The translations under genes and the position numbers were made by a program. From contig JAAXWW010000001.1 of assembly GCA_013334765.1 (NCBI GenBank), forward strand, positions 236,589-300,588: a DNA stretch of 64,000 bases, given 5' to 3'. Each line of letters starts with the position of its first letter. Within the stretch, counting starts at the first letter, position 1. The notes beneath the pieces were generated by a model, which saw only the letters and a program-made list of their open reading frames with translations, had not been told where the DNA came from and did no database searches. This document shows positions 3,549 to 60,968 of the stretch, in pieces. This stretch comes from Candidatus Moraniibacteriota bacterium (lineage in GTDB: Bacteria; Patescibacteriota; Minisyncoccia; Moranbacterales; UBA2206).

Positions 3549-5465
3549 ATGGGCAAGGATTCGAAAAGGAAATCCGGGAAAAAGTCGGAGTCTTTCGGAA
3601 GGCCGAAAGCGTCTCCGTCCAATCGAAGGATCCGCATCCTGGCCCTCTTTGTTTTTTTTGCCGCTGTTTCGATATGCTTGAAGCTTTATTTCCTTCAAGT
3701 GAAAGCATACGGGTATTATAGCGAGCTTGCGGACAACCAGCATTCCGTTCTCAAGAACCTTTTTCCCAAAAGGGGGGAGATTTTCCTGAAAGACCATGAC
3801 GGGTTGCGTCCGGTCGCGGTGAACAAGGAAACCAAGATGGCATATGCCATCCCGAGAGAGATCGAGGATCCCAGGGGTGTCGCCGCGCCGCTGTCTTCAG
3901 CTCTCGGGCTTGATAGGAACGATTTGGAAGAAAGGCTGTCTCGGCCTGATGACATGTATGAACCGCTGAAGCACAGGCTGAGCGATGAGGAAATAGCGGC
4001 GGTCAATGATTTGAAGCTTCCCGGCATCCATTTGGCGGACGAGTCATACCGCTATTATCCGGCCAGCGAACTGGCTGCCCATGTCCTGGGCTTTGTCGGC
4101 TGGAAAGACAATCAGCTTGGAGGAAGATATGGCGCGGAACTTTCTTTCGAAGACCGCCTCCGCGGCGAAGCGGGGCATCTTGTTCAGAAGGGTGATAATT
4201 CCGGAGGCTGGATCGCGACAAAAAACAAGGATGTGACCAGCGCCAAGGATGGGGATAATCTCGTCCTCACTATCGATGACATCATCCAATATGAGACGGA
4301 GAAGATATTGAAAGCCTCGGTTGAGAAATTCGAAGCTGATCGCGGAACCATAATCGTCATGGATCCGCCGACCGGCAAGATACTGGCCATGGCCAATTAT
4401 CCGACGTTCAACCCGAACGAATACGGAAAAACGGAAGACATGGATGCTTTCCGCAATCTGGCGATAAGCGATGCCTATGAGCCGGGGAGCATTTTCAAGG
4501 CCTTCACGCTGGCAGCGGCGCTGGATGACGGAAAGATAAGCCCGGACACCACATATACTGACACCGGAACGGTCAATGAAGCGGGATACGCGATCAAGAA
4601 TTCTGATTTCAAGGCTAACGGAGTCCAGACCATGACGCAGGTTTTGGAAAAATCGCTCAATACGGGAGTCATCTTCGCGGAAAAACTGGTTGGGAACAAG
4701 GATTTCGCCGATTATGTCAGAAGGTTCGGATTCGGAGCGGAGACCGATGTCGACCTTTTCGGAGAGGCGGAGGGCAATATCAACAACCTGAAGGATTTGA
4801 AAAGCAATATCCAATTCTTCACTTCAGCCTTCGGTCAGGGGATTACGGCGACGCCGATCCAGCTGGCGGCCGCATACAACGCCATTGCCAACGGCGGAGT
4901 GCTCGTGAAGCCGCAGATAGTCGACAGGTTCATCCATCCGGACGGGAGCGAAGAGACTGTTCCTGCTCAAGAAGTGAGAAGGGTCATTTCACAGCAAGCC
5001 GATGCCGAAATCGCGCAGATGCTTCGCTCGGTGGTGACCGATGGGCATGGCAAAAGGGCCGATGTGCCAGGATACCTGGTTGGCGGAAAGACTGGAACGG
5101 CTCAGGTCGCGAGCAATGATTCCAAGGGATACGCGGATGGCAAGAGTATCGGTTCATTCGCTGGCTTTGCGCCCATCAACAATCCGAAATATACTGTCTT
5201 GGTGCGCTTGGATGATCCGAAGAATGTCGAGTGGGCGGAATCGAGCGCGGCGCCTACTTTCGGTGAGCTTATGGCGTTTCTTCTGAAATACGGACGGGTT
5301 GAGCCGACCGAGAGCTATACTCAGAAGAATCTGGATGATTTCAACGCGACGCACACGCTCAAGGATTATTTCGCTGACAAAGAGAAAGAGGAAGACAAGA
5401 AGAATACGGATGGGCAGGATAACAATTCCAGCTCTTCGGATTCCGCTGCCGCGGATAAGAGATAG
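3549..5465 (+). CDS. ftsI: peptidoglycan D,D-transpeptidase FtsI / PBP2-class penicillin-binding protein
   Basis: N-terminal TM, SxxK (GSIFKAF), SxN and KTG(T) (GGKTGTAQV) motifs; dcw context. Confidence 0.85.
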   Translation: MGKDSKRKSGKKSESFGRPKASPSNRRIRILALFVFFAAVSICLKLYFLQVKAYGYYSELADNQHSVLKNLFPKRGEIFLKDHDGLRPVAVNKETKMAYAIPREIEDPRGVAAPLSSALGLDRNDLEERLSRPDDMYEPLKHRLSDEEIAAVNDLKLPGIHLADESYRYYPASELAAHVLGFVGWKDNQLGGRYGAELSFEDRLRGEAGHLVQKGDNSGGWIATKNKDVTSAKDGDNLVLTIDDIIQYETEKILKASVEKFEADRGTIIVMDPPTGKILAMANYPTFNPNEYGKTEDMDAFRNLAISDAYEPGSIFKAFTLAAALDDGKISPDTTYTDTGTVNEAGYAIKNSDFKANGVQTMTQVLEKSLNTGVIFAEKLVGNKDFADYVRRFGFGAETDVDLFGEAEGNINNLKDLKSNIQFFTSAFGQGITATPIQLAAAYNAIANGGVLVKPQIVDRFIHPDGSEETVPAQEVRRVISQQADAEIAQMLRSVVTDGHGKRADVPGYLVGGKTGTAQVASNDSKGYADGKSIGSFAGFAPINNPKYTVLVRLDDPKNVEWAESSAAPTFGELMAFLLKYGRVEPTESYTQKNLDDFNATHTLKDYFADKEKEEDKKNTDGQDNNSSSSDSAAADKR

Positions 5466-5553
5466 ATGCTATGATGATAATATGCGGGCGTTCATGTTCG
5501 CCTCACTCGTTCAGTTGTCATATGCAAATGCATAAGTCATAAAGATACAGGAT

Positions 5554-6903
5554 ATGCCGGAAGAAAAATCGAAAAAGAAAATCATGCTGGAACGGATCCT
5601 CCGATTCATGGCTTCTCAGATAGTCAAGAAATACAATCCTCGGATCGTCGCGATAACCGGTTCGGTCGGGAAGACTTCAACGAAAGAAGCTGTTTTCTCC
5701 GTTCTTTCCCCGCACTTCCGCGTCAGGAAGAATGAGAAGAATTATAACAATGAAATCGGGCTGCCTTTGACCGTCATCGGTTCTGAAACGGGCGGAAAAT
5801 CGCTTTTGAAATGGATGGGCGTCTTCTTGAAATGGGCGCTGATCATGCTTTGGCCGGTGGAATATCCGGAGATATTGGTTTTGGAAATGGGGGCTGACAG
5901 GAAAGGGGATATCGCCTATCTGACAGGATTCATGAAGCCGGCCATCTCTGTTTTGACGGAAGTGTCCGCCAGCCATCTGGAGCATTTCAAGACTATCGGC
6001 GCGGTTCTCAAGGAGAAGGCGACTATACTCAAAGCCCTCGAAGAAAAGGATCTGGCTATTCTCAACGCGGACAACGTTCAGATCGCGAAGATCCTTTCCA
6101 AGCCCAAGCAGTACGGGATAAGATCGAACATATTGTCATATGGTTTTTCTGATCAGGCCGATGTGAAGGCTGCCGATGTTTTTTATGGATATTCGGATAT
6201 GGAAAAAGAAGGCGATATGGCAAGCAATGATATGCGAGGGCTCAGTTTCAAGCTGACATACAAGGGAACCACTCTGCCGGTGAGGCTTAACAATATCCTG
6301 GCAAAGCATAATATATATGCTGCCATGGCCGGGATTTCAGTCGGTCTGGGCTTCGAACTCAATCTTGTCGATATCGCTGCCAGCCTTGAGAATTTCTCCT
6401 TGCCGCCGGGGCGGATGAGCCTTATCGCTGGCATGAAAGAATCGCATATCATAGACGATACATATAATGCTTCGGTGGTGTCGACCAAAGCAGCGCTAGA
6501 CGTTTTAGGCGAGATGGGCGGCGCGAGAAAGATCGCGGTGCTTGGCGATATGCTGGAGCTGGGCACGGAAACCGAAGCTGGCCACGCGGAAGTAGCTGAT
6601 AAGTTCTTGGAAATCAAAGGGGATATCTTCATCGGAGTCGGAACCAGGATGCTGTTCGCGGTTGAAGAACTGAAAAAAAGAAAATTCAAGGAGGGCAATC
6701 TCTATCATTTCCGAAGCCCGATGGAGGCGGCTGCGAAACTGGAAGAAATCATCGGGAAAGGGGACATTGTCCTTGTGAAAGGCTCTCAGGGGCTTCGCAT
6801 GGAGAAAGTGGTTGAGGAAGCGATGCTTGAGCCGTATAAAGCCAAGGATCTTCTTTGCCGCCAGAACAAGGCCTGGAAAAATGAGCCCTGGAGCGCGGTT
6901 TGA
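5554..6903 (+). CDS. murF: UDP-N-acetylmuramoyl-tripeptide--D-alanyl-D-alanine ligase (Mur ligase family, MurF-like)
   Basis: Mur-ligase P-loop IVAITGSVGKTSTKE; length and domain order fit MurF. Confidence 0.75.
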   Translation: MPEEKSKKKIMLERILRFMASQIVKKYNPRIVAITGSVGKTSTKEAVFSVLSPHFRVRKNEKNYNNEIGLPLTVIGSETGGKSLLKWMGVFLKWALIMLWPVEYPEILVLEMGADRKGDIAYLTGFMKPAISVLTEVSASHLEHFKTIGAVLKEKATILKALEEKDLAILNADNVQIAKILSKPKQYGIRSNILSYGFSDQADVKAADVFYGYSDMEKEGDMASNDMRGLSFKLTYKGTTLPVRLNNILAKHNIYAAMAGISVGLGFELNLVDIAASLENFSLPPGRMSLIAGMKESHIIDDTYNASVVSTKAALDVLGEMGGARKIAVLGDMLELGTETEAGHAEVADKFLEIKGDIFIGVGTRMLFAVEELKKRKFKEGNLYHFRSPMEAAAKLEEIIGKGDIVLVKGSQGLRMEKVVEEAMLEPYKAKDLLCRQNKAWKNEPWSAV

Positions 6904-9288: not shown

Positions 9289-10989
9289 ATGGATAAGTTC
9301 TATTTTCCGAATCCGAAAACTACGGACCCTAAAGAGAGGAGAGTGCAGCGCATCCTTGAAATAATTCCCGGAGTGCTCACCTGGGCTACGCTTGTCGGGA
9401 TGATCGTCCTTTCATTCCTTTTGCCGGTGTGGGTCGCGACTTTCATTATCGTGTTCGACGTGTATTGGATATTGCGCACCATCTATGTCGCTTATTATTC
9501 TGTTGAAGGATACAACAAGCTGAAAGAAGGCAAAAAGATCAACTGGTGGGACAGATGCCAGAATATTTCCAATCCTTCCAGATATGCCGAAATGCTGGAA
9601 GAGAAAATCGCAAGGCTGAAATCCAGCTTGAAGGAAAAAGGACTGATGAAACGGAAAGAGGTGCGTATTTTGAAAAATGAAATGGCGAGGGAGGAAAAAT
9701 ATCTGGGCGAAGTCAGGGAGCTTGAAAAGATAAAAGGCCAGATTTTGGACTGGAGAGAGATTGTCCATGTGGTCATGCTTCCGACTGCCACTGAACCGGC
9801 AGATGTCATAGAGCCGGCCATCCAGGCTGTTGCTGACGCTAATTTTCCCAACGAACAGATCATAATCCTCTTGGCTACCGAAGAGAGGGAGAACGAAGAA
9901 AGACGGCTTGAGAAAGTCAATCATCTCAGAAGCAAATTCGATGGTGTTTTCAGGGATTTCATTGTCACGACCCATAAGGTCAAGGATGATGAGATGAAAG
10001 CCAAAGGATCCAACGCGACTTTCGCAGCACATGAACTGGCGGAATATCTCAACGAGAGGAATATCGATTTCAAACGGGTCATATTCTCGAATTTCGATTG
10101 CGACAGCGTGGCGCATCCGGAATATTTCGCCGCGCTCACCTATGAATACATAACTGATCCCAAGAGGCTGCAGAGGAGCTATCAGCCGCTCCCGATGTAT
10201 CACAACAACCTTTGGGACACCAACGCTTTCGTGCGCGTTATCGTCACCGGATCGAGCTTCTGGCATATCTTCCAAAGCACCCGCATCGAGGGCATGGTGA
10301 CGTTCTCATCGCATAGCGAGCCTTTCGACACCCTCTACCGGGTCGATTTCTGGCCGCTCAACATGATAAGCGAGGACTCGATCATCTATTGGAAGTGCTT
10401 TTCTTATTATAATGGCGACTACAAAGTGAAGCCGATCTATTTGCCGATTTCGTTGGATGCGGTTTTGGCGGAAACATATTGGAAAACCATCAAGAACCAG
10501 TACAAGCAGAAAAGGCGCTGGGCTTATGGAATCGAAAATTTTTCAGTGATCATGCGCGCGATAGTGCCCAACAAGAAGATATCCTTCGGCAAGAAATTCG
10601 GCATAGCTTTCGAGATGCTCGAAGGCCATCATTCCTGGGCGACGTCGTCGATCATCCTGGCGGCTCTCGGATGGCTCCCTCTCATCCTGGGAGGCGAGGA
10701 ATTCAACCAGAGCGTCCTTGCGCACAACCTGCCTTTCATCACCCGGTATCTGATGATGATCGCCATGACGGGACTGGCAGTATCGATGTCGCTGAGCTTC
10801 CTTCTCCTGCCGCCGCGTCCCGCGAGATATTCCGCTTGGAGGAATCTTCATATGCTCTTGCAATGGGTCCTGGTGCCGGTAATATCGCCGCTTCTCGGTT
10901 CTCTTCCGGCCATCGATTCGCAAACGAGGCTGATGCTCGGAAAATATTTCGGCGAATTCTGGGTCACGGACAAAATCAGGAAAAAATAG
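9289..10989 (+). CDS. family-2 processive glycosyltransferase (cellulose-synthase-like membrane GT)
   Basis: Multi-TM protein with D, DxD-like and QxxRW (QYKQKRRWAYG) motifs. Confidence 0.7.
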   Translation: MDKFYFPNPKTTDPKERRVQRILEIIPGVLTWATLVGMIVLSFLLPVWVATFIIVFDVYWILRTIYVAYYSVEGYNKLKEGKKINWWDRCQNISNPSRYAEMLEEKIARLKSSLKEKGLMKRKEVRILKNEMAREEKYLGEVRELEKIKGQILDWREIVHVVMLPTATEPADVIEPAIQAVADANFPNEQIIILLATEERENEERRLEKVNHLRSKFDGVFRDFIVTTHKVKDDEMKAKGSNATFAAHELAEYLNERNIDFKRVIFSNFDCDSVAHPEYFAALTYEYITDPKRLQRSYQPLPMYHNNLWDTNAFVRVIVTGSSFWHIFQSTRIEGMVTFSSHSEPFDTLYRVDFWPLNMISEDSIIYWKCFSYYNGDYKVKPIYLPISLDAVLAETYWKTIKNQYKQKRRWAYGIENFSVIMRAIVPNKKISFGKKFGIAFEMLEGHHSWATSSIILAALGWLPLILGGEEFNQSVLAHNLPFITRYLMMIAMTGLAVSMSLSFLLLPPRPARYSAWRNLHMLLQWVLVPVISPLLGSLPAIDSQTRLMLGKYFGEFWVTDKIRKK

Positions 10990-10992
10990 CAC

Positions 10993-11141
10993 AGGACTTG
11001 CGTATTTGCCTCAAAAACCTTTCAAATCGCGAGGCTGTGCGGAACTCGTCCGGGTTATATACGGGTTCGGTCTCGACTCTCCAGAAACTGCTTTCTGTTT
11101 CTGGCTAAGAAAAAGGTTTTTTCAGCAAACGCGTAAGTCCT
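10993..11141 (+). repeat. family-1 palindromic intergenic element, copy A
   Basis: About 30-bp terminal inverted repeats aggacttgcgtatttgcctcaaaaaccttt / aaaggttttttcagcaaacgcgtaagtcct. Near-identical copies at 31930-32077 and 60807-60954. Confidence 0.9.
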
Positions 11142-11162
11142 AAAGCAAATTAGCAAAAAAGC

Positions 11163-13580: not shown

Positions 13581-13713
13581 TCACATGTGGAAAATTATTT
13601 TTTAAATTTAAAAAATAATTTCTGCAAAAAACAAAGGTCGAAACAAAAAGAAAATTGGAGAGAATAATTTCCAAGGAATTAGAAAATAAAAATAGAAAGG
13701 ACGGTGATAAAAA

Positions 13714-13866
13714 ATGGCAAAGAAAAAAGTAGCTAAGAAAGCTGTGAAGAAAGTAGCCAAGAAAAAGGTTGCTAAGAAAGCCGTGAAAAAAGTTGCTAAG
13801 AAAAAAGTAGCTAAGAAGGCCGTGAAGAAGGTTGCTAAGAAGAAAGTGGCTAAGAAAAAGAAATAG
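13714..13866 (+). CDS. 50-aa lysine/alanine-rich repeat protein, histone H1/Hc1-like (MAKKKVAKKAVKKVAKKK x3)
   Basis: ATG 13714 with AAAGGA Shine-Dalgarno; 39-bp (13-aa) unit repeated 3.5x; stop TAG 13864-13866. Absent from the ORF track (<60 aa); its reverse complement appears there as the FLATFF ORF. Confidence 0.6.
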   Translation: MAKKKVAKKAVKKVAKKKVAKKAVKKVAKKKVAKKAVKKVAKKKVAKKKK

Positions 13867-22724: not shown

Positions 22725-22747
22725 GCGATATGATTGGCTGATGACCA

Positions 22748-22900
22748 GGCGAAGGAGAGGAAATTCAAAGGAACCAAACTCGAATACTCCGTTTTCTTTC
22801 CAAAATATTCACGCCTCTGATTCGTCGGTATGCCTCAGAAAATTTTGGAGAAAATGGGCATTCTCAGACAGTGTTTCCTTCGAATTTCCTCTCCTTCGCC
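22748..22900 (+). repeat. family-3 palindromic intergenic element, copy a
   Basis: 25-bp terminal inverted repeats ggcgaaggagaggaaattcaaagga / tccttcgaatttcctctccttcgcc; core about 85% identical to 25159-25313. Confidence 0.85.
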
Positions 22901-22934
22901 TTAGCTGTATTATTCTATAGATTTAAAAATACCA

Positions 22935-25158: not shown

Positions 25159-25313
25159 GGCAAACCGGATGAGATTTCAAAAGAACCAAACTCGAATGCT
25201 CGGTTTTCTTCTCAAAATATTCACGCCTCTGAATCGTTAGCATGCCTCGGAATATTTTGAAGAAAACCGGCATTCTCAAACAGTGTTTCTTTTGAAATCT
25301 CACCCAGTTTGCC
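25159..25313 (+). repeat. family-3 palindromic intergenic element, copy b
   Basis: Terminal inverted repeats ggcaaaccggatgagatttcaaaag / cttttgaaatctcacccagtttgcc; core shared with 22748-22900. Confidence 0.85.
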
Positions 25314-26392: not shown

Positions 26393-26548
26393 GGCGAGGG
26401 GATTTATTATTTCTGAATGAACTCACCTGTCTGAGAACGCGCATTTTTTCAAAAATATTCCACCGGATGCCGTCGATTGAGGGAATATTTTTGAATAAAA
26501 AATGCGACGTTCGAGTCAGTTCATTCAGAAATAATAAATCCCCTCGCC
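26393..26548 (+). repeat. family-2 palindromic intergenic element, copy 1
   Basis: Arms ggcgaggggatttattatttctgaatgaactcac / gtcagttcattcagaaataataaatcccctcgcc; core cgcattttttcaaaaatattcc...ggaatatttttgaa...aaaaatgcg. Confidence 0.85.
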
Positions 26549-31888: not shown

Positions 31889-31925
31889 CGAGGCAGGTTC
31901 GTGTTTCTGTGCCTCGTCTCTTTTC
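31889..31925 (+). terminator. rho-independent terminator
   Basis: cgaggca-ggttcgtgtttctg-tgcctcg followed by tctcttttcg. Confidence 0.5.
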
Positions 31926-31929
31926 GCTC

Positions 31930-32077
31930 AGGACTTATGCGTTTGCCTCAGAAACCTTTTAAATCGCGAGGCTATTCGCGATCTGTCCGGGTTATATATG
32001 GTTTTATCTTGACTTTCCAGAAATTGCTTTCTGTTTCTGGCTAGAGAAAAGGTTTTTTCAGCAAACGCATAAGTCCT
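31930..32077 (+). repeat. family-1 palindromic intergenic element, copy B
   Basis: About 88% identical to 10993-11141; both arms carry compensating changes (tatgcg). Confidence 0.9.
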
Positions 32078-32111
32078 ATTTGTTATTAATTAATCCTTCA
32101 GGCTCAGCAGA

Positions 32112-37437: not shown

Positions 37438-37746
37438 ATGACCTATAGGTATAGCGATAGCTTTCCTAAAAGTGAAATTTTTGGACTAACCAATCAGATC
37501 AGAAGAGCTGTTGTTTCCGTCGTGTCTAATATTGCCGAAGGCTTCAGCAGAAGCACAGTTAGGGATAAATGCCATTTTTATTCAATCGCGCACGGATCGT
37601 TAACGGAATTGCAGAGCCAGCTGATAATTGCAAGAGACCTGCATTTTTTAGAAAAAATCAATTTCGAAAAGCTTGCATCGCAAACCATAGAAGTCTCAAA
37701 GCTTATCAGCGGATTAAAGAGGATAGGAGGTGATACAAAATACTAA
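37438..37746 (+). CDS. four-helix-bundle protein (23S rRNA intervening-sequence protein family, TIGR02436-like)
   Basis: SFPKSEIFGLTNQIRRAVVSVVSNIAEGFSR...GSLTELQSQL. The conserved N-terminus (DLNAWKESHKLVL) is encoded in-frame upstream (37399-37437) without ATG/GTG/TTG (only CTG at 37402). Inverted repeats flank the gene. Confidence 0.7.
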   Translation: MTYRYSDSFPKSEIFGLTNQIRRAVVSVVSNIAEGFSRSTVRDKCHFYSIAHGSLTELQSQLIIARDLHFLEKINFEKLASQTIEVSKLISGLKRIGGDTKY

Positions 37747-37770
37747 ATACGATATACGGAATACGAAGCA

Positions 37771-46777: not shown

Positions 46778-46850
46778 AGCCGCCTGTCGGAATCGAACCG
46801 ACGACCTACGCGTTACGAGTGCGTCGCTCTGCCAACTGAGCTAAGGCGGC
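46778..46850 (-). tRNA. tRNA-Thr (anticodon CGU)
   Basis: RC reads GCCGCCTTAGCTCAGTTGGCAGAGCGACGCACTCGTAACGCGTAGGTCGTCGGTTCGATTCCGACAGGCGGCT, a cloverleaf with anticodon loop CTCGTAA. Confidence 0.8.
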
Positions 46851-46851
46851 T

Positions 46852-46927
46852 GACTACGCCGAGGCTTCGTCAGCCAAAGGCCGACTATGCCGAGGCTTCG
46901 TCAGCCAAAGGCCGACTATGCCGAGGT
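46852..46927. repeat. 31-bp tandem repeat x2.45 abutting tRNA-Thr 5' end
   Basis: gactacgccgaggcttcgtcagccaaaggcc / gactatgccgaggcttcgtcagccaaaggcc / gactatgccgaggt. Confidence 0.85.
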
Positions 46928-47516: not shown

Positions 47517-47670
47517 GGAAAGAGAGTGATGATATTTCAAATGACTGACTCGAGCATCGCATTTTTTATTCAAAAATATTCCCTCGCTCGACGGCATCCG
47601 GTGGAATATTTTTGAAAAAATACGTGCTCTCAAACAGGTGAGTCGTTTGAAATATCATCACTCTCTTTCC
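47517..47670 (-). repeat. family-2 palindromic intergenic element, copy 2 (inverted relative to copy 1)
   Basis: The core is the reverse complement of the 26449-26515 core; different arms (ggaaagagagtgatgatatttcaaa...) that pair with each other. Confidence 0.85.
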
Positions 47671-59658: not shown

Positions 59659-60753
59659 ATGGCGGATTATTATGAAATATTGGGCGTGACAAGAGGCGCC
59701 AGCGATGATGAGATCAAGAAAGCATATAGGAAACTGGCGCATAAGCACCATCCTGACAAGCAGGGCGGCGACGAGGCCAAGTTCAAGGAAATAAACGAGG
59801 CCTATCAGGTGCTTTCCGACAAATCGAAGCGCGAGCAATACGACCGGTTCGGCAAGAACTTCAATCAGGGACAGGCCGGCGGCGGCCAGGGCTTCGGCGG
59901 TTTCGATTTCAGCGGCTTCGGCGGCGGCAACGGGAACGGCTTCAATTTCGAGTTCGGCGGCGGAGATTTCGAGGATATTTTCTCGACTATTTTCGGCGGC
60001 GGCGGACGCGGCGGATCAGGAAGGAAAAGAGGGCAGGATATCCAGGTGGATGTCGATATTACTTTCGAAGAGATGGTCAGCGGTTCGGAGAAAGAGCTCA
60101 GGCTGTATAAATCCGTGGTGTGCGACAGGTGCCACGGGAACGGCGGCGATCCTGGGTCTGAGATGAAAACCTGTGCCACATGCCACGGTTCGGGACGGGT
60201 GAGAAGGGTGACCAGGGGATTCTTCGAAAACTTCGAACAGGTGGTGGAATGCCCGACCTGCCACGGAGCGGGGAAGACATATGAGAAGAGGTGTTCGAAA
60301 TGCGGAGGCGATGGCAAAGTCAAGGAGGAAGTGAAAATGAAGATAAGGATACCGGCTGGAATCGCTGACGGGCAGACTATTTCTTTCCAAGGAGAAGGGG
60401 AGGTCGGAGAACACGGATCGATGCCTGGCGACCTCTATGTCATGGTGCACGTCAAGAAGCACAAGGAGTTCACGAGGAGCGGCTTGGATATCCTGAGCAG
60501 CGTCGAAATCCCTTTTTCGATGGCGGCGCTCGGCGGGGAGACAGTTATCAGCACTATTTCCGGCCAGCTGATTCTCAAGATCCCGTCCGGAACGCAATCG
60601 GGCGAGGTATTCAAAGTGAAAGGCAAAGGAGTGCCGGAACTTCGCGGCAGCGGAAGAGGGAACCAGATGGTGAAAGTCATCGTCAAGACTCCCAAGAAGC
60701 TTTCCCGTGCCCAGAAGAGGATATTGGAAGAACTGAAAGAATCCGGAGAATGA
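59659..60753 (+). CDS. dnaJ: chaperone DnaJ
   Basis: J domain (DYYEILGV...HPD), G/F region, four CxxCxGxG zinc-finger repeats. The track ORF is 5'-extended to 59587. Confidence 0.9.
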
Positions 60754-60806
60754 TTTTCTGGTTTTCCTTTTTTTGTGATATCATTGCATCAGGGAAAATA
60801 AAATAC

Positions 60807-60954
60807 AGGACTTGCGCATTTGCCTCAAAAACCTTTTAAATCGCGAGGCTGTGCGGAACTCATCCTGGTTATATATGGTTCGGTCTTGACTCTCCAGAAA
60901 CTGCTTTCTGTTTCTGGCTAAGAAAAAAGTTTTTTCAATAAACGCGCAAGTCCT
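60807..60954 (+). repeat. family-1 palindromic intergenic element, copy C
   Basis: About 90% identical to 10993-11141; arms carry matching ttgcgc/gcgcaa changes. Confidence 0.9.
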
Positions 60955-60968
60955 AAAATAAAAACAAT

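Follow-up and report, generated by a model that had tools for sequence, protein, structure and literature searches.

Palindromic intergenic repeats in a Candidatus Moraniibacteriota genome are very probably MITEs of an IS701-family insertion sequence circulating in Patescibacteria

We analyzed a 64-kb stretch of DNA from Candidatus Moraniibacteriota (hereafter, the window), in which three copies of a palindromic repeat of about 150 nt lie dispersed between genes. These repeats are very probably non-coding MITEs, passengers of an IS701-family (ISMesi2-like) insertion sequence (IS) that circulates in the Patescibacteria (CPR). A sequence-only reading of the window had left the choice open between a MITE, a REP-like element, and a small structured RNA family. 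The first of these options is supported by terminal inverted repeats (TIRs) of the IS701 type, a target-site duplication (TSD) with a fixed length of 5 bp, small size without coding content, ends that are shared with an autonomous IS, and an empty site for one of the three copies. The family is real and apparently undescribed, as we found no description in the literature searched of its end sequence or of MITEs in Patescibacteria.

All three copies were located on the + strand in the same orientation, at the positions given by the sequence-only reading (10993-11141, 31930-32077, and 60807-60954), with true limits that extend one base further on each side. The earlier estimate of 88-90% identity captured their high similarity but was slightly too narrow, since blastn gave pairwise identities of 92.6% (A-C), 84.7% (A-B), and 83.9% (B-C). 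The copies and their main parts are as follows.

10992..11142, + strand: MITE copy A, 151 nt including the terminal C...A; its left TIR is CAGGACTTGCGTATTTGC, and its right TIR (reverse complement) is TAGGACTTACGCGTTTGC, which equals the family consensus
31929..32078, + strand: MITE copy B, 150 nt, the most diverged copy with ~84% identity to A and C; its TIRs carry the ATGCG variant at both ends
60806..60955, + strand: MITE copy C, 150 nt, with 92.6% identity to A
11081..11104, + strand: inner hairpin CCAGAAAC-TGCTTTCT-GTTTCTGG, repeated at 32017-32040 and 60894-60917

Each copy is an imperfect palindrome, as originally described. Inverted arms of 30-31 nt, which are 77-87% complementary, enclose 86-89 nt that contain the inner hairpin, and this hairpin is exact in all three copies. 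Its sequence, CCAGAAAYTGCTTTCTGTTTCTGG, occurs exactly three times in the window, compared with 0 occurrences expected from shuffles. The folding of each copy far exceeds that of shuffled sequences on either strand (z from -4.4 to -9.2), with + strand folds of -46 to -62 kcal/mol (z from -4.4 to -8.3). The differences between arms that had been reported among the copies (tatgcg in B, ttgcgc/gcgcaa in C, and ttgcgt/tacgcg in A) are all present. At arm position 8, the predicted pair is G.U in A, A-U in B, and G-C in C, while position 9 pairs as C-G in both A and C and as U-A in B. None of the copies has coding capacity, as the ORFs that overlap them are chance ones of 45-47 aa.

A collapsed repeat in the assembly was considered as a source of these copies, and the check was negative. 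The copies differ from one another, their flanks are unique, and an independent Logan assembly of SRR11449211 recovers the same genes on contigs that break inside copies A and B, with contig L001 stopping 29 nt into the 3' arm of copy B. Such breaks are expected of a genuine dispersed repeat in de Bruijn assembly. Separately, the window contains a degenerate, solitary TIR-like fragment, ATGACTTATGCATTTGC, at 5524..5541 on the - strand, where a spacer separates the genes at 3549-5465 and 5554-6903. An older element, from the same superfamily as the window copies, probably left this fragment behind.

In order to find relatives beyond the window, we searched GTDB species genomes with the pattern AGGACTTN5TTTGC-N(100-130)-AAAN5AAGTCCT, which fixes parts of both arms and leaves the interior free; about 2 chance hits were estimated for this library. 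The pattern matched 41 loci, of which 40 are palindromic elements, mostly 130-156 nt long, from 25 Patescibacteria species genomes. The remaining match, in Cryptobacterium, was rejected as a chance match. Hosts include Moranbacteria, Kuenenbacteria, Saccharibacteria, Komeilibacteria, and other Patescibacteria, along with one contig labeled Bdellovibrionales, and the UBA4824 genome alone carries at least 10 copies of one 150-nt type. Family members end in (T/C)AGGACTTACGCGTTTGC at both termini, a sequence from which the outer 18 nt of the window copies deviate by 0-4 mismatches per end, and several types of interior, unrelated to one another, can be distinguished among them. Homologues outside the window therefore exist for the ends but were not found for the interior. 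The inner-hairpin pattern had 0 matches in one scan each of the species-genome and JGI metagenome contigs, which indicates that the interior of the window subfamily is lineage-specific.

The family members are intergenic without exception, occupying 26 tandem, 9 convergent, and 5 divergent spacers. We found no gene that travels with the element, whether a RAYT or a domesticated transposase, in an all-against-all comparison of 235 flanking ORFs; only syntenic housekeeping clusters recur in that set. Neither the arm pattern nor the 17-mer had a match among viral contigs (0 each), which indicates that the element is not phage-borne. Many metagenome contigs terminate at the repeat.

Some of the interiors have structure of their own. 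A hairpin module of the form GTCATTC(C/T)...GAATGAC, arranged in inverted pairs, builds the interiors of loci L007, L008, L010, L016, L028, L033, L034, L037, and L040 (for example GTCATTCCCGCGAAAGCGGGAATCC), whose hosts are members of the Saccharibacteria and Kuenenbacteria and two unclassified MAGs. This module has the appearance of a short palindromic repeat in its own right, enclosed by the AGGACTT ends. In another observation, L016 (4254-4401, Kuenenbacteria) and L038 (2949-3098, Moranbacteria) occupy the same spacer between the same orthologous genes and have unrelated interiors, which could be the result of independent insertion into a rare permissive spacer or of an old shared insertion.

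A search for target-site duplications at the boundaries of the copies, which the sequence-only reading had suggested, uncovered a 5-bp duplication. In the window, the sequences flanking the copies are as follows.

10987..10991: left TSD of copy A, TAGCA, in which the GT2 gene (9289-10989) has its TAG stop codon
11143..11147: right TSD of copy A, AAGCA, a 4/5 match to the left one
31924..31928: left TSD of copy B, TCGCT, decayed; the empty site in locus L168 reads TTTGT
32079..32083: right TSD of copy B, TTTGT, the same five bases that L168 carries once at its orthologous empty site
60801..60805: left TSD of copy C, AAATA
60956..60960: right TSD of copy C, AAATA, a 5/5 match

The two halves at copy B, TCGCT and TTTGT, match at only 2 of 5 positions. 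Across the family, the signal is much stronger than chance. In a first set of 47 elements, 12 had an exact 5-bp duplication, compared with 0.7 expected from flank permutation, and 25 matched at four or more of the five positions (4.2 expected by the same permutation). An independent metagenome set gave 23 exact duplications out of 39 (0.97 expected), and no signal was present in that set at lengths of 4, 6, 7, or 8 bp. The duplication lies immediately outside the Y...R termini.

Locus L168, whose RecJ is 83% identical to that of the window, provides an empty site for copy B. The order of the REC-Zn-ribbon gene and recJ is kept there, and a single TTTGT is found exactly at the insertion point. 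For this comparison, the 150-nt MITE and one copy of its TSD (155 nt in total) were explicitly removed from the window sequence, because MAFFT misplaced that gap. The L168 sequence then aligns with the window minus these 155 nt free of gaps from the REC-Zn hairpin to the start of recJ. Two other loci, L002 and L003, also have no element upstream of recJ, yet were rejected as clean empty sites because the gene further upstream differs. At another position, the Moranbacteria locus L018 has a member upstream of a conserved gene where neither L038 nor the window has one.

The autonomous partner was identified in a metagenome scan for the 18-mer end, which returned at least 120 loci. Among those listed, 23 are elements of 1046-1129 bp (~1.07 kb) bounded by the same ends in inverted orientation, and 19 of these listed 23 contain an intact ORF of 322-327 aa. 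Against the NCBIfam model NF049921 (“IS701 family transposase”), the ORF scores 350.9 bits, above the cutoff of 250, with E=7e-105. This match, which covers model positions 3-315 of 318, belongs to the ORF of the partner IS and to none from the window. Pfam matches to DDE_5, DDE_Tnp_1, and DDE_Tnp_2 were obtained as well. Judged by its sequence, the ORF is an IS701-family DDE transposase. The repeat, which could not be matched to a named family in the sequence-only reading, can now be placed, because its ends are the TIRs of an IS701-family (ISMesi2-like) insertion sequence.

This IS is widespread. A large protein collection contained 2,744 relatives of its transposase at E < 1e-20, and most of the listed relatives were on contigs of ~1.0-1.6 kb, about as long as the IS itself, as is typical of a multi-copy repeat. 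One intact IS lies between gdh and trpS with an exact AAATA duplication, and its contig encodes a TrpRS with 100% identity to the one in a Candidatus Gribaldobacteria genome, indicating that the IS lives in CPR chromosomes. The clade is not confined to the CPR, since relatives at ~66% identity have labels that include Methanoperedens and “uncultured archaeon.” Among full-length IS copies, just 3 of 21 had an exact 5-bp TSD, a low count that may be due to chimeric metagenome assembly of a multi-copy repeat. IS-sized pairs of ends did not occur among the loci from GTDB species genomes, and the IS was seen in the metagenome scan alone. The window subfamily and the sampled IS copies have only their terminal 17-24 nt in common, and none of the IS copies recovered is recognizable as a source from which the interior of the window copies could have been derived by deletion.

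Based on these results, we propose the following scenario for the origin of the window copies. Transposase would be supplied in trans by a full-length IS elsewhere in the genome, either now or in the past. It would bind both ends and excise or copy the element, which would then insert at a 5-bp staggered cut in AT-rich intergenic DNA. A compact CPR genome would tolerate insertions only in the short spacers between genes, and the placement of the copies right next to stop and start codons would follow from this. Two inverted ends, plus a subfamily-specific extension of the arms to ~30 bp, give the copies their palindromic shape. When co-transcribed with its neighbors, such an element can form a long hairpin, and nothing points to selection on that hairpin. 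The window copies look old or decaying, given their 84-93% identity, their TSDs matching at 5/5, 4/5, and 2/5 positions, and the absence of a transposase gene from the 64-kb window by tblastn.

Each copy lies between two co-directional + strand genes, and two of the upstream genes have hairpins of their own.

Copy A: GT2 gene upstream and GT4 gene downstream; 3 nt after the stop codon and 21 nt before the start codon
Copy B: REC-Zn-ribbon gene upstream and RecJ gene downstream; 65 nt after the stop codon and 34 nt before the start codon
Copy C: DnaJ gene upstream and an ORF of 166 aa downstream; 53 nt after the stop codon and 14 nt before the start codon
31890..31925, + strand: terminator-like hairpin (GAGGCA...TGCCTC) belonging to the REC-Zn gene, with a T-rich tail behind it
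60743..60771, + strand: terminator-like hairpin and T-run 3' of dnaJ, upstream of copy C and separate from it

An exact-protein look-up of the 166-aa ORF gave no match. The description of the copies as sitting directly after a stop codon, where a terminator would be expected, holds strictly for copy A only, and the terminator role itself is not supported. Terminator scans found no intrinsic terminator (a GC-rich stem followed by a U-tract) coinciding with any of the three copies, and no U-tract follows them. The hairpin of the REC-Zn gene is separate from copy B, upstream of it, and conserved in L168, which has no MITE. With their own terminator-like hairpins upstream, the genes preceding B and C do not rely on the element as a stand-in. 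Promoter scans at the three copies showed nothing consistent; a hybrid TTTTCA-16-TAAAAT site is present at the junction of copy C only.

Elsewhere in the window, a 31-nt direct repeat, GGCYGACTAYGCCGAGGCTTCGTCAGCCAAA, with 94% identity between its copies (46848-46909) starts at the 5' end of a tRNA gene (46778-46850, - strand) and could represent a scar of integration or a duplication of the tRNA end. Within an ORF, a tandem array of a lysine-rich coding repeat, AKKKVAKKAVKKV..., spans 13709-13857, with a period of 39 nt and five overlapping 71-nt copies in the style of histone H1 or HU tails. Logan contig L001 also contains, at 5390-5698 (approximately 37440-37750 of the window by the RecJ offset), a 102-aa gene with Pfam matches to 23S_rRNA_IVP and bAvd, within a MacB/FtsX ABC-transporter cluster. 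bAvd is an accessory protein of diversity-generating retroelements, and no reverse transcriptase was found among the called genes nearby.

An alternative to simple passenger status is that former MITEs have been kept for a transcribed long hairpin that serves the flanking operons, as an RNase III processing site, an mRNA 3'-end stabilizer, or a transcriptional insulator, with arms that co-vary under selection. We consider this unlikely. Its appeal stems partly from the arms. The sequence-only reading had taken compensating changes between them as a sign of selection for base pairing, which is more than the data will bear: 4 of 54 predicted pairs changed on both sides among the three copies, compared with 1.7 +/- 1.0 in shuffles. 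The excess of double changes is there, and some constraint on pairing may underlie it, but it is marginal, as 21 of 500 shuffles reach 4 and the structure was derived from the same three sequences. At the five arm positions that our search pattern left free, in 47 family members, 18 matched double changes were observed along with 43 single ones, and several of the double changes are common to related elements and thus do not represent independent events. ISMesi2 and the CPR IS likewise differ from each other by matched changes at the two ends, although the ends of the IS are 1 kb apart and unable to pair. Concerted change of the two ends is therefore general among elements recognized by one transposase and is not by itself a sign of RNA pairing. 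Moreover, the window arms are 77-87% complementary, a level that does not exceed the 84-93% identity between copies, as neutral, independent decay of two ends predicts.

The arrangement and folding of the copies can be read in the same two ways. All three window copies are sense-oriented between co-directional genes, but three copies in the same orientation are a 1 in 4 outcome by chance. Their folds are very stable, as described above, but among the 26 elements in tandem contexts the sense-strand fold was the more stable one in 14 and the less stable one in 12 (Wilcoxon p=0.97), and G.U and A.C mismatches in the window arms are balanced between strands. Divergent and convergent spacers are also occupied, and one orientable subfamily has 5 copies along and 2 opposite to its flanking genes. 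In favor of retention, the spacers of a conserved gene cluster are filled by different palindromic elements in different Moranbacteria. Against it, L168 lacks any element in its counterpart of the copy B spacer.

Two other palindromic families were observed in the window. The second family, of ~155 nt, is present at 26393-26548 and 47517-47670 in opposite orientations. Between its two copies, identity is 89% over the 88-nt core but only 71-74% in the outer 34-nt arms, and yet these arms are 91-97% self-complementary within each copy. Arm covariation is thus much stronger in this family than in copies A, B, and C. A foldback origin could account for this, as could insertion into the center of an existing palindrome or selection for pairing. 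The third family, also of ~155 nt, is present at 22747-22901 and 25159-25313. The outermost ~20 nt of its arms differ between copies (AGGCGAAGGAGAGGAAATTC... and GGCAAACCGGATGAGATTTC...), and each copy is self-complementary at 82-85% over 34 nt; in this family, too, arm covariation is much stronger than in copies A, B, and C. A conserved co-directional gene cluster hosts both copies in its spacers, and the same cluster in the Moranbacteria loci L018 and L038 has AGGACTT-type elements in the equivalent spacers.

A broader proposal would be that the window MITEs and these other ~155-nt palindromic families, which fill neighboring spacers, have been recruited as operon punctuation in the CPR. If so, co-transcribed hairpins would be RNase III processing or mRNA-stabilizing sites, and selection for pairing would keep the arms complementary while their sequence turns over. 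We found no positive support for this proposal at the family level, and we regard it as improbable.

It is less probable still that the repeats are a free-standing structured ncRNA or a cis-regulatory RNA family, such as a riboswitch-like leader. The stable predicted secondary structure, the conserved inner hairpin, and the position of the copies, which end 14-34 nt ahead of a start codon, would be consistent with such a role. In opposition, the only Rfam matches in the whole window at the gathering threshold were three tRNAs, and a search over copy A with E up to 10 returned nothing credible. The genes downstream of the copies are functionally unrelated (a GT4 glycosyltransferase, RecJ, and the 166-aa protein of unknown function), and the elements occur in both orientations and in all spacer types without a sense-strand bias in folding. 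Outside the source genome, the transposon ends are conserved and the interior is not, and the TSDs and the empty site show insertion. The structured-RNA reading is already contradicted by the TSD and by the ends shared with the IS.

The remaining option from the sequence-only reading, a REP/REPIN-type element mobilized by a RAYT (Y1 HUH) via a single-stranded hairpin intermediate, would account for compensatory arm changes at the DNA level, and it fits two short conserved sequences inverted around a variable spacer with some arm positions compensated, but it retains almost no probability and was rejected, since REP/REPIN elements insert without target duplication while this family has a fixed 5-bp one, its ends are identical to those of an IS701-family element with a DDE transposase, and no gene recurs near its members.

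The MITE reading has several implications for the study of Patescibacteria. The end TAGGACTTACGCGTTTGC, a 5-bp TSD, and an IS701-family partner together provide a signature by which this repeat can be annotated. The repeat interrupts short-read assemblies of Patescibacteria genomes, and the partner transposase is mostly found on isolated contigs of ~1.1 kb. Small, streamlined CPR genomes still hold an active-looking IS/MITE system, which is common to the distant Saccharibacteria, Kuenenbacteria, and Moranbacteria. Its presence in lineages this distant suggests either horizontal spread or long retention. No new mechanism is involved, as the repeats are an ordinary kind of element and not a new structured RNA.

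Among known systems, REPINs and their RAYTs resemble the window family in having an inverted pair of short conserved sequences that forms a hairpin, an intergenic location, and many copies. They differ from it in that the window family has a 5-bp TSD and a DDE partner, with no RAYT and no GTAG-type REP head. Hairpin-folding MITEs between genes are well known in bacteria, and Correia, ERIC, and RUP elements duplicate TA at their targets. The window copies share with Correia (Neisseria), ERIC (enterobacteria), RUP (Streptococcus pneumoniae), and MITEAba12 a length of 100-160 bp, the lack of coding sequence, TIRs, placement between genes, co-transcription with neighbors, many dispersed copies, and a TSD of fixed length. 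Their ends and their parent IS family are different. MITEAba12 is an IS-derived element of the Moraxellaceae (PMC6382973).

The closest likeness is to IS701-family elements on plasmids. The nearest plasmid relatives of the CPR transposase are ~40% identical and come from Gloeocapsa, Piscirickettsia, Acinetobacter, and Allomeiothermus, the last of which is annotated as “IS701-like element ISMesi2 family transposase” on plasmid pMESIL01. ISMesi2-like and ISAba11-like members of IS701 encode a DDE transposase in ~1.1 kb, comparable to the single ORF of the 1046-1129 bp CPR IS; unlike them, the window elements contain no transposase and reside in Patescibacteria. The IS701 family has TSDs of 4-5 bp according to ISfinder. 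The single ISMesi2 copy that we inspected is flanked by a 7-bp repeat, TGGAGGA, as opposed to 5 bp in the window family. Its ends on pMESIL01, TAGGAGTTACGCAGTTG and TAGGACTTACGCAGTTG, carry the terminal motif of the window repeats. They start with TAGGA(G/C)TTACGC, for which the window family has the counterpart TAGGACTTACGC, and at end positions 13-14 the window family has GT where ISMesi2 has AG.
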